Assembly (NCBI RefSeq): GCF_024502345.1
Contig: NZ_JALDNN010000001.1
DNA: 64,000 bases
DNA from: Escherichia coli
Lineage (GTDB): Bacteria > Pseudomonadota > Gammaproteobacteria > Enterobacterales > Enterobacteriaceae
Strand: one strand, 5' to 3'
Part shown: one piece after another, positions 20,189 to 22,834 of the stretch
Numbering within the stretch: the first letter of the stretch is position 1
How the letters are laid out: each line of letters begins with the position of its first letter
The notes under the pieces: model-generated
Databases searched by the model: none
Seen by the model: the letters and a program-made list of their open reading frames with translations, nothing else
Told to the model about the DNA's origin: nothing
Program-made: the position numbers and the translations under genes

Positions 20189-21277
20189 TCACGGCAGGCG
20201 GTGGCGGGCTTGATAATAAGCCTGCCAGTGAGCTTCTTTATGTGTGGCGACACGCTGTTCGAAGTAACGGCGCAGACGAGCGCGATCTTCTTCGTTATCT
20301 TTGACGATGGTTCCGGCAATACAGTCCACCAGATCGGCTGGCTCACCTGCGCGATTCGCTAAAAACCAGGCGCGGACGCCCACAGCGTGGGCCACGTTCA
20401 CGGCTTCAGCGGTGGACATAATCGCTGTTAGTGTATCCATTGACGTTTTCTTTTCGCCGTTGGCACGCAGATCGCGGAAGGTGCGGACCAGTAACTCCAG
20501 TACCGCGTCAGGCACTTTATGCGGAATACCGCTATGGGCCAGCAAACGCGCCGAAGCACTGGCGACAAGCTCCAGCTCCTGGGCGAAATCCATAATCGGA
20601 AAGACAGTTTCAAAATCGAAGCGACGCTTTAGCGCAGCACTCATTTCATTGACGCCGCGATCGCGGGTATTGGCAGTGGCAATAATATTAAAGCCTTCTC
20701 GCGCATAGAGCTGACTGGCTTCACCAGTGAGTTCCGGCACCGTCATCACCCTGTCAGAAAGCATACCTAACAGACAGTCTTGCACTTCCAGCGGTGTACG
20801 CGTTATCTCTTCAAAACGGACGATTTTGCCGTCGCGCATTCCCTGGTAAAGCGGGGCAGGGACCAGCGCTTCCGTTGATGGACCATGATTGATAAGCAGG
20901 GCGTAGTTCCAGCCGTACTTGATTTGATCTTCGGTAGTAGATGCGCCGCCCTGGATGGTTAACCCGGCATCGCCGCTAATAGAGGTTGCCAGTAATTCAG
21001 ACAGGAGAGATTTTGCGGTGCCAGGTTCCCCCACCAACATCAAACCGCGTCCGGTGGCAAGAGTGACTAACATACGTTCGACAGCGGAGGGACTAATCAC
21101 CACTTTACGGCTAATATTTTGCGCGCTATCGCCAAGGATAAAAGCACGGGCCGCAGGCAAACTTAACTGCCAACCGGGCGGGCAAGGTGCGTTATCATTT
21201 TGTTTTAATTTTGCCAGTTCATCGGCGTATAACACAGCAGCAGGCGGACGCTGCAGATGATTATTCTGCGGTGACAT
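20189..21277 (-). CDS. yehL: MoxR-family AAA+ ATPase
   Basis: Walker A GEPGTAKS, MoxR/CbbQ-like core; ORF trimmed to MSPQNNHLQ (362 aa). Confidence 0.85.
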   Translation of the reverse strand: MSPQNNHLQRPPAAVLYADELAKLKQNDNAPCPPGWQLSLPAARAFILGDSAQNISRKVVISPSAVERMLVTLATGRGLMLVGEPGTAKSLLSELLATSISGDAGLTIQGGASTTEDQIKYGWNYALLINHGPSTEALVPAPLYQGMRDGKIVRFEEITRTPLEVQDCLLGMLSDRVMTVPELTGEASQLYAREGFNIIATANTRDRGVNEMSAALKRRFDFETVFPIMDFAQELELVASASARLLAHSGIPHKVPDAVLELLVRTFRDLRANGEKKTSMDTLTAIMSTAEAVNVAHAVGVRAWFLANRAGEPADLVDCIAGTIVKDNEEDRARLRRYFEQRVATHKEAHWQAYYQARHRLP

Positions 21278-21385
21278 ATATTCATCCCTGAAATGTATTA
21301 ATGAAATAAACGATATTTTACGCGCAATAAATGTTTGGCGCATTAGTTGTTTGAGCGAAAAATATCTGGAAAGCAGATCACAGTA

Positions 21386-21471
21386 AATAAAAAAACCTGC
21401 TGGTGAGGCAGGTTCTTTTATTTACTATTTTCAGGCCTAACACCACAGCCTGTGCAACATCGTGTTCCAAC
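21386..21471 (-). ncRNA. candidate Orz-like antitoxin sRNA (copy 1)
   Basis: minus-strand promoter (-35 TTGCAA 21501..21506, 17-bp spacer, -10 TATAAT 21478..21483), intrinsic terminator at 21386..21413; 5' end complementary to zor 5'UTR 21618..21638. Confidence 0.55.
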
Positions 21472-21477
21472 GAACGA

Positions 21478-21528
21478 ATTATAACCACGGCTGGACCCCG
21501 TTGCAATTAAGATAATGAGATTTATAAT
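21478..21528. promoter_or_regulatory. divergent promoter pair sharing one palindromic -35 hexamer TTGCAA (copy 1)
   Basis: plus strand: TTGCAA-16 bp-TATAAT (21523..21528); minus strand: same TTGCAA-17 bp-TATAAT. Confidence 0.55.
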
Positions 21529-21709
21529 CCTGACTGTTGGGACGTTGCGCCGGATCGAACCTATTTCAAGTCCTGGCTACCGGACGGGGGGTGCTGCAGG
21601 TAGTGCCCTGATCCGGAGTGCAACATCGTGGTCCAACATACGTAAACCAGTATCGACAGGCAGTGTAAGGGTAAGGTGCTGGTGTTGCGCTCCTTAATAA
21701 GGAGAGCGG

Positions 21710-21799
21710 ATGGACTCGCTGACACAAAAGTTAACCGTGCTCATTGCTGTACTGGAGCTATTAGTGGCTCTGTTACGGTTGATTGATTTGTTGAAGTAA
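21710..21799 (+). CDS. type I toxin, 29 aa MDSLTQKLTVLIAVLELLVALLRLIDLLK (ZorO/ZorP-like)
   Basis: hand translation; GGAGAG RBS; single hydrophobic helix; ~174-nt leader from predicted TSS; near-identical copy 608 bp downstream. Confidence 0.7.
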   Translation: MDSLTQKLTVLIAVLELLVALLRLIDLLK

Positions 21800-21820
21800 C
21801 GGGCAAATTGAAACGCATCT

Positions 21821-21846
21821 AAGGGGGAAAACCGCTTCCCCCTTTA
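21821..21846 (+). terminator. intrinsic terminator of toxin mRNA copy 1
   Basis: GGGGGAA-loop-TTCCCCC hairpin followed by TTTAATAAA. Confidence 0.7.
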
Positions 21847-21995
21847 ATAAAATGATTACTGTTTTTATTAATTCATCATATAACTCATTTTTATTTATAA
21901 ATTCATCGATTTTATATTCAACGCACCATTTGACCGGGATGTGAATATTTATGTTGGGCTATTGGCAAAAAATATCTGGAAAGTAGATCGCAGAA

Positions 21996-22079
21996 AATAA
22001 AAAAACCTGCTGGTGAGGCAGGTTCTTTTATTTACTACAGTGACGCTAACTTGCTGATTGTGCAACATTTCGTACCAAC
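21996..22079 (-). ncRNA. candidate Orz-like antitoxin sRNA (copy 2)
   Basis: same promoter/terminator architecture as copy 1 (-35 22109..22114, -10 22086..22091, hairpin 22006..22022). Confidence 0.55.
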
Positions 22080-22085
22080 GAATAA

Positions 22086-22136
22086 ATTATATCCATATCC
22101 ACACTCCATTGCAATTCAGTGAGTGAGATTTATAAT
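22086..22136. promoter_or_regulatory. divergent promoter pair sharing palindromic TTGCAA (copy 2)
   Basis: TTGCAA 22109..22114; plus-strand TATAAT 22131..22136; minus-strand TATAAT (rc) 22086..22091. Confidence 0.55.
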
Positions 22137-22317
22137 CCTGCCCGTTGGGAGGTTGTGCCGGATCGGACCAATTTTAAGTCCTGGCTGCCGGACGGGTGGT
22201 GCCGCAGGCGGTGCCCTGATCCGGAGAGCAACGTTTCGTACCAACATACGTAAACCAGTATCAACAGGCAGTGTAAGGGTAAGGTGCTGGTGTTGCGCTC
22301 CTTAATAAGGAGAGCGG

Positions 22318-22407
22318 ATGGACACGCTGACACAAAAGTTAACCGTGCTCATTGCCGTACTGGAGTTATTAGTGGCTCTGTTACGGTTGATTGATTTGTT
22401 GAAGTAA
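22318..22407 (+). CDS. type I toxin, 29 aa MDTLTQKLTVLIAVLELLVALLRLIDLLK (ZorO/ZorP-like)
   Basis: hand translation; differs from copy 1 by S3T; same RBS and leader structure. Confidence 0.7.
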   Translation: MDTLTQKLTVLIAVLELLVALLRLIDLLK

Positions 22408-22428
22408 CGGGCAAATTGAAACGCATCT

Positions 22429-22454
22429 AAGGGGGAATACCGTTTCCCCCTTTA
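22429..22454 (+). terminator. intrinsic terminator of toxin mRNA copy 2
   Basis: GGGGGAA-loop-TTCCCCC hairpin + T-run. Confidence 0.7.
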
Positions 22455-22516
22455 AGAAAGCTATACTCGTCATACTTCAAGTTGCATGTGCTGCGACTTT
22501 AATTATCTAGAGTATA

Positions 22517-22834
22517 TTATTCTATTTCTTGGTTGAATATATTCTGTAGTTCACGATTAAAAATTGCTATTACAGTTTCAGGTGATTCACCTCGTAATTT
22601 CCGCTCATCAATACACTCATCTCTTATATAAATCAACGCATCATTTATTAGCGGGTCAGCATCTTCTCGATCACGTTGATGAAATGTTGGATGTAGCCGG
22701 AATCGCTCCAGTCGATAGACGGAACCTGTAAATAATTCAGAGCATTTATGGATCTCAAGTCTGAAGGAAAACGGATCTTCAGGTACAGGGACCTCATAAT
22801 CGTAAATAGCAACTAGCTCTTTTTGCACGATCAT
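22517..22834 (-). CDS. yehK: hypothetical protein YehK
   Basis: 105-aa ORF in syntenic position. Confidence 0.7.
   Translation of the reverse strand: MIVQKELVAIYDYEVPVPEDPFSFRLEIHKCSELFTGSVYRLERFRLHPTFHQRDREDADPLINDALIYIRDECIDERKLRGESPETVIAIFNRELQNIFNQEIE

Follow-up and report, generated by a model that had tools for sequence, protein, structure and literature searches.

In the zor-orz type I toxin-antitoxin locus of Escherichia coli, the data support a single palindromic hexamer, TTGCAA, as the sole plausible -35 element for both of the mapped divergent promoters, one producing the toxin mRNA and the other the antitoxin sRNA, in each of the two copies of the locus. Our main reading of the 51-bp segment at positions 21478-21528, to which we give a probability of roughly 0.55, goes further: the segment would be a back-to-back sigma-70 promoter core, built around one -35 hexamer, that RNA polymerase binds exclusively in one direction or the other, with the toxin:antitoxin ratio set by the two on-rates. 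All positions refer to the window, the whole 64,000-nt stretch of E. coli DNA that was analyzed.

The zor-orz locus and its promoter core

The locus is the known, tandemly duplicated E. coli type I toxin-antitoxin system zorP-orzP / zorO-orzO, located between yehL and yehK, and the copy at 21478-21528 is of the zorP/orzP type, encoding ZorP (MDS...), not zorO. E. coli chromosomes match a 1.25-kb region here, between the same two genes, with 3,389 genomes covering at least 80% of it; this position, the yehI/yehK-yehL intergenic region, was reported earlier along with a frequent tandem duplication (Fozo 2010, PMC2887945). The duplication takes in the whole toxin-antitoxin unit (21355-22445, outer limits placed by eye) with a period of 608-610 bp, and is detected as two repeat families, D1, of 300 nt at 86% identity, and D2, of 73 nt at 95%. 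The zorP gene, on the plus strand, consists of a 174-nt 5' UTR (21536-21709) with a ribosome-binding site, AAGGAG, at 21699-21704, followed by a 29-residue ORF (21710-21799) translated as MDSLTQKLTVLIAVLELLVALLRLIDLLK. The zorO gene has the same layout on the same strand (22144-22407, including a 174-nt 5' UTR), with AAGGAG at 22307-22312 and an ORF at 22318-22407 that encodes 29 residues, MDTLTQKLTVLIAVLELLVALLRLIDLLK. The two small hydrophobic peptides are ZorP, the T3S variant so named in PMC11264685, and ZorO, as that study describes them.

Both antitoxin sRNAs lie on the minus strand, upstream of their respective zor genes, and match the Rfam family OrzO-P (RF02083, gathering score 60): OrzP (21389-21471) scores 99.9 bits at 21389-21464, and OrzO (21999-22079) scores 88.8 bits at 21999-22072. 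OrzP starts at G 21471, pairs through its 5' end with the zorP leader, and ends in a terminator hairpin at 21394-21414. The pairing can be followed by eye: positions 21453-21472 are repeated with one mismatch at 21619-21638, in the Orz-pairing region of the zorP leader (~21618-21638), and positions 22060-22079 recur in the zorO leader near 22227-22246, again with one mismatch, which is a G-U pair in the RNA. The positions of these pairing regions agree with PMC2887945. The toxicity of Zor and its rescue by Orz were established experimentally in strain EDL933 (PMC2887945, PMC3919570), whose zor-orz locus has the same 29-residue toxins, Orz sRNAs, yehL-yehK site, tandem duplication, 174-nt leader and -10/-35 assignments. 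The two loci differ at 22092, beside the orzO -10, where the window reads GGATATAAT, whereas GGTTATAAT is found in strain E2865 and in a primer used to clone from EDL933; the window thus derives from a close relative of EDL933 and not from that strain.

The promoter core of the P copy is built around the palindromic TTGCAA at 21501-21506, common to zorP on the plus strand and orzP on the minus strand, an assignment that rests on the sequence, on a promoter scan and on Table 3 of PMC11264685. The zorP -10 (TATAAT, 21523-21528, plus strand) lies 16 bp to one side, and the orzP -10 (TATAAT on the minus strand, ATTATA on the plus strand, 21478-21483) lies 17 bp to the other. A reading of the sequence alone had proposed exactly this arrangement, and it is borne out here, as is its claim of an identical second core. 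In the O copy, TTGCAA at 22109-22114, likewise placed by sequence and promoter scan as common to zorO and orzO, is flanked by the zorO -10 (TATAAT, 22131-22136, plus strand) at 16 bp and the orzO -10 (TATAAT, 22086-22091, minus strand) at 17 bp. The motif ATTATA-N17-TTGCAA-N16-TATAAT thus occupies 21478-21528 and 22086-22136, and this core occurs twice because the zor-orz locus is tandemly duplicated. When both spacers were relaxed to 15-19 bp, the window still contained exactly two matches, against 0.00 in 100 dinucleotide-preserving shuffles. A promoter scan of 21200-22600 found four sites, all built on these two TTGCAA hexamers and each with 10/12 matches; all four promoters have both the -10 and -35 hexamers of sigma-70 promoters and a spacer of 16 or 17 bp. 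Neither promoter carries an extended -10 TG, and no alternative -35-like hexamer was seen at 16-18 bp in either direction. TTG is the best-conserved part of the sigma-70 -35 element. No hexamer other than TTGCAA has TTG as its first three letters on either strand alike, so that none could serve better as a -35 that is read both ways.

The starts of both zor mRNAs and both Orz sRNAs were mapped by primer extension (Fozo 2010, PMC2887945), and the zorO leader is described as 174 nt long with a ribosome-binding site at +164 to +169 (Wen 2017). When the published UTR and RBS figures are converted to window coordinates, the zor starts fall on G 21536 for zorP and G 22144 for zorO, each 8 nt beyond its TATAAT, and both leaders are 174 nt long. 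The toxin start had been expected near 21535 from sequence, and the published zorP start agrees with this, so that a distant toxin start is not seen. On the antitoxin side, the pBR-plac cloning primers carry an AatII site fused to the 5' end of the sRNA (...GGTTATAAT-GACGTC-GTTGGAACACG; Wen 2014, primer EF541). By this design, transcription on the minus strand begins at G 21471 for OrzP and G 22079 for OrzO, in each case 7 nt past the TATAAT of that strand (for OrzO, the one at 22086-22091). All four starts are therefore 7-8 nt downstream of their -10 elements, inside the 6-9 nt range of sigma-70 promoters. The divergent starts of each zor/orz pair are 65 bp apart, a distance at which the two -35 positions must coincide.

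Conservation and published record of the shared hexamer

Eleven distinct zor/orz sequences from seven strains (the window and six others) were compared, including P, O and Q types, one further variant and the K-12-type orz-only locus. All three hexamers and the 17- and 16-bp spacings are invariant in 11/11 sequences. The spacers themselves vary at 12 of 17 positions on the orz side and 4 of 16 on the zor side, which gives 0/18 variable hexamer positions against 16/33 variable spacer positions (Fisher p = 0.0003). This pattern supports selection on the hexamers and their geometry, and its weight is limited because the compared copies are all from E. coli and closely related; in a plasmid collection, zor-orz copies were likewise found in E. 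coli alone. The conservation of TTGCAA does not distinguish a -35 needed by one promoter from a -35 needed by both.

The orz-only locus of the K-12 type (E. coli O16:H48) retains orz, the shared -35, both -10 elements and roughly 48 nt from the start of the zor leader, and a deletion joins this truncated leader to sequence found near position 22500 of the window. A toxin promoter thus persists there in the absence of the toxin. The zor -10 is given as intact in 100% of 656 orz-only loci in the survey PMC11264685.

The promoter elements of zor-orz are already known, since the hexamer assignments are in print. The predicted -35 and -10 elements are boxed in Fig. 1A of Wen 2014, and Table 3 of a 2024 mSystems survey of 2,439 loci (PMC11264685) lists the -35 (TTGCAA) as conserved in 99.4% for zor and 99.4% for orz, and the -10 (TATAAT) in 100% and 99.8%. 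The two -35 figures are equal because they describe one and the same hexamer. In the searchable text of the zor-orz papers searched, "shared" is used of the intergenic region alone, and no discussion was found of hexamer sharing, RNA polymerase competition or ratio control at this locus. Looking more widely for -35 elements that overlap or are shared, and for promoters placed back to back, gave no relevant match, which is weak evidence, given that "-35" cannot be matched within a phrase.

Other type I loci of K-12, shoB-ohsC, tisB-istR-1 and dinQ-agrB, resemble zor-orz in having a divergent sRNA whose pairing site lies far upstream within a long toxin leader. At shoB-ohsC, a -35-like overlap (TTGTAA on the plus strand, TTTACA on the minus strand) with the 65-bp geometry was considered and dropped, because the shoB promoter described in print (GTGACC-18-TAAAAT) and the ohsC start are separated by 143 bp. 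No shared -35 was seen at tisB-istR or dinQ-agrA/B, dinQ-agrA being judged by sequence. Transcription of tisAB and istR-2 starts ~80 bp apart, and each has a -35 region of its own. TTGCAA is the -35 of agrA as well, but on the dinQ side the closest -10-like hexamer is 14 bp from it. Sharing is evidently not required in such toxin-antitoxin systems, since shoB-ohsC and tisB-istR work without it and none is apparent by sequence at dinQ-agrA.

Two further observations concern these loci. TTGCAA turns up again as a -35 in other promoters of type I antitoxin sRNAs: those of the K-12 sRNAs AgrA and AgrB read TTGCAA-N17-TAGCAT and TTGCAA-N17-TAGTAT, although in the agr case the hexamer is not placed for sharing with dinQ. 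Separately, the zorO leader at 22174-22207 (+31 to +64) and the K-12 tisB mRNA (about +44 to +76) have in common a near-identical block of ~33 nt, TAAGTCCTGGCTG..ACGGGTGGTGCCG.CAG, with a local alignment score of 40 against 16.8 +/- 2.2 (maximum 25) in dinucleotide shuffles. The block starts just past the positions at which the processed mRNAs that are active in translation begin (zorO delta-28, tisB +42). An alignment of the tisB and shoB leaders is likewise above the null (z = 6.2), and a 2020 paper calls these loci non-homologous.

Probable shared -35 elements in other genomes and viral contigs

Species-representative genomes were scanned for ATTATA-N16-18-TTGCAA-N16-18-TATAAT, which yielded at least 120 loci, mostly in metagenome-assembled genomes of Firmicutes. 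Among the matches listed, 60/120 have the 17/17 spacing, where 11% would be expected were spacing of no consequence; after loci with related flanking proteins were merged, 17/17 spacing is still found in 43 of the 92 clusters among these matches (p = 1e-17 against 11%). Hairpins or simple palindromes were rejected as a cause of this excess, since the other equal spacings are rare among the matches listed (five for 16/16 and one for 18/18, against 60 for 17/17). The flanking ORFs, from a crude ORF call on the matches listed, are divergent in 50 cases, convergent in 2 and tandem in 32 (p = 2e-11 against 25% divergent). Of these two lines of evidence, spacing is the cleaner, because AT-rich divergent intergenic regions would favor any AT-rich pattern. 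A cluster of 13 Clostridia genomes, defined by similar flanking proteins among the matches listed, keeps the 17/17 design throughout while its spacers have diverged; its flanks are CCA tRNA nucleotidyltransferase-like and YegS-family lipid kinase genes, according to a family search in one genome and similar ORFs in a few others.

In viral contigs, where spacers of 11-23 bp were allowed, 11 of 124 sites have the 17/17 spacing; a uniform distribution would give 0.7, and about three would be expected if only one side were a real promoter (Poisson p = 0.0003). This excess of 11 over ~3 argues that both sides of the viral 17/17 sites are usually real promoters. With the control center TTCGAA, the 17/17 spacing occurred in one of 135 sites in the viral contigs (Fisher p = 0.002). 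Judged by these pattern statistics, with 17/17 over-represented in both bacterial genomes and viral contigs and not with TTCGAA, the sharing of a -35 looks recurrent and is probably a selected promoter design.

Close divergent promoters at which a polymerase on one hinders the other include Pant/Pmnt of phage P22 and PR/PRM of lambda. These overlap through other parts of the promoter or stand side by side (the PR and PRM starts are 82 bp apart), and they are governed by repressors; to our knowledge, neither pair has a single palindromic -35 in common. Closer in principle are the bidirectional promoters of Warman et al. 2020/2021 and PMC12825309 (2026), in which a two-fold-symmetric core element is read both ways, one polymerase excludes the other, and the outputs can be coupled. 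Those promoters share the -10, with starts 7-25 bp apart (most often 18), whereas zor-orz shares the -35, has starts 65 bp apart and keeps its own -10 for each direction. Under the definition of Warman and Grainger, zor-orz falls outside the bidirectional promoters and among separate divergent promoters, given its 65-bp distance and separate -10 elements. The nearest described analogue is a shared TATA box in Thermococcus kodakarensis, with starts 52 bp apart, where an upstream element is likewise common to divergent starts; it relies on TBP/TFB instead of sigma-70 and has no link to toxin-antitoxin systems. The engineered promoter BDP-01 (Yang, Sleight and Sauro 2013, PMC3592475) resembles zor-orz in that overlapping elements tie the mutational fate of two divergent transcripts, but there the forward -35 overlaps the -10 of the reverse promoter instead of its -35. 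Such a tied fate may be one thing that a toxin-antitoxin pair gains from sharing a -35.

Proposed polymerase exclusion and the toxin:antitoxin ratio

The sequence-only reading held that RNA polymerase would have to choose between toxin and antitoxin transcription, and the geometry bears this out by inference: both promoters use the same hexamer, and their nominal polymerase footprints (-55 to +20) overlap by 46 bp in window coordinates. Two polymerases should be unable to sit together on the pair, since they would contend for the same 6-bp major-groove site of sigma region 4 in addition to the 46-bp overlap, and only one at a time would then occupy it. Both promoters would also rely on a single -35, so that a mutation or a factor acting there would affect toxin and antitoxin transcription together. 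In an occupancy model of this arrangement, the initiation frequency of each promoter would be f = k_on / (1 + sum of k_on x residence time), with the sum taken over both promoters. If binding is exclusive, the zor:orz initiation ratio is therefore the ratio of the two on-rates, and it would be insensitive to polymerase concentration, promoter saturation and the residence time of the complexes; independent promoters would lose a constant ratio on saturation. Mutual inhibition would be confined to high occupancy, and the 17-bp spacer on the orz side, compared with 16 bp on the zor side, would favor the antitoxin. Built-in control of the toxin:antitoxin ratio by the shared -35, which the sequence-only reading had raised as a possibility, is a reasonable hypothesis on these grounds. 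The main control of the toxin stays post-transcriptional, through pairing of Orz with the leader, RNase III cleavage of the duplex, and the full-length leader blocking its own translation.

The sharing may also be real but without functional effect, a product of maximal packing in which the promoters are rarely occupied and transcribed independently, and the ratio is set post-transcriptionally. We consider this possible, though somewhat unlikely. It fits the published regulation of zor-orz, which is entirely post-transcriptional (RNase III, leader processing and standby translation; Wen 2014, Wen 2017), as well as shoB-ohsC and tisB-istR, which do without a shared -35, and dinQ-agrA, where none is apparent by sequence. 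It also fits the behavior of the -10-sharing promoters: steric polymerase competition has been demonstrated there experimentally, and in five natural examples lowering one direction left the other no higher, their basal activity being too low, with competition seen only after strong activation of one direction (PMC12825309). The zor and orz promoters, however, each have a -10 without mismatch, a -35 that contains TTG and a spacer of near-optimal length, which makes high occupancy plausible, and a 17/16 geometry that stays invariant while the spacers diverge, together with the over-representation of the same design elsewhere, speaks against an absence of effect. A different possibility is that TTGCAA truly serves one promoter, the other running on its consensus -10 alone at a coincidental spacing. 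Substantial activity is possible from a consensus -10 even where the -35 is weak, and conservation of the hexamer is silent on which promoter needs it; the lack of an extended -10 TG and of any other -35-like hexamer at 16-18 bp, together with the 11 viral 17/17 sites where ~3 were expected, nevertheless leaves this only a slim chance.

We give the least credence to a shared region that acts as an operator for a common transcription factor, or to positive coupling of the two promoters, either by the negative supercoiling that divergent transcription generates or with each -10 serving as an UP-like element for the other. The segment GATAATGAGATTTATAATC at 21511-21529, which covers part of the zorP spacer and its -10, matches the Fur-box consensus at 15/19 positions, a level reached by three sites in the whole 64 kb, this one included; the zorO copy, by manual count, matches at 12/19, and we treat the putative Fur box as a lead, not a finding. 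Each A/T-rich -10 lies, by coordinates, at about -52 to -58 of the opposite promoter, where an UP element would sit, and both Orz sRNAs fall in stationary phase (PMC2887945). Against this, the zor-orz papers searched report no regulator of zor-orz transcription, and coupling by supercoiling needs no shared hexamer.

Exclusive binding at one -35, the reading we prefer, would bear on how the toxin escapes its antitoxin. If the two promoters are coupled in this way, the toxin:antitoxin initiation ratio would be hard-wired, and toxin escape would therefore depend on leader processing or on decay of the RNAs. Speaking against this reading, decay strongly shapes the Orz and zor RNA levels that are observed (Wen 2014). 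A -35 mutation that kills the antitoxin promoter would also silence the toxin. More tentatively, and with appreciable doubt, palindromic -35 pairs (TTGCAA, ideally with 17/17 spacing and starts ~65 bp apart) may form a widespread, selected class, distinct from the -10-sharing promoters, that fixes transcript ratios, through obligatory exclusive binding, regardless of polymerase availability, and zor-orz may thereby hold antitoxin transcription in constant excess. The scans suggest that bidirectional promoters are commonly built by sharing a -35, at least among low-GC bacteria and the phages that infect them. Genome-wide work on bacterial bidirectional promoters would have missed a class of this kind, because it has so far examined starts 7-25 bp apart.
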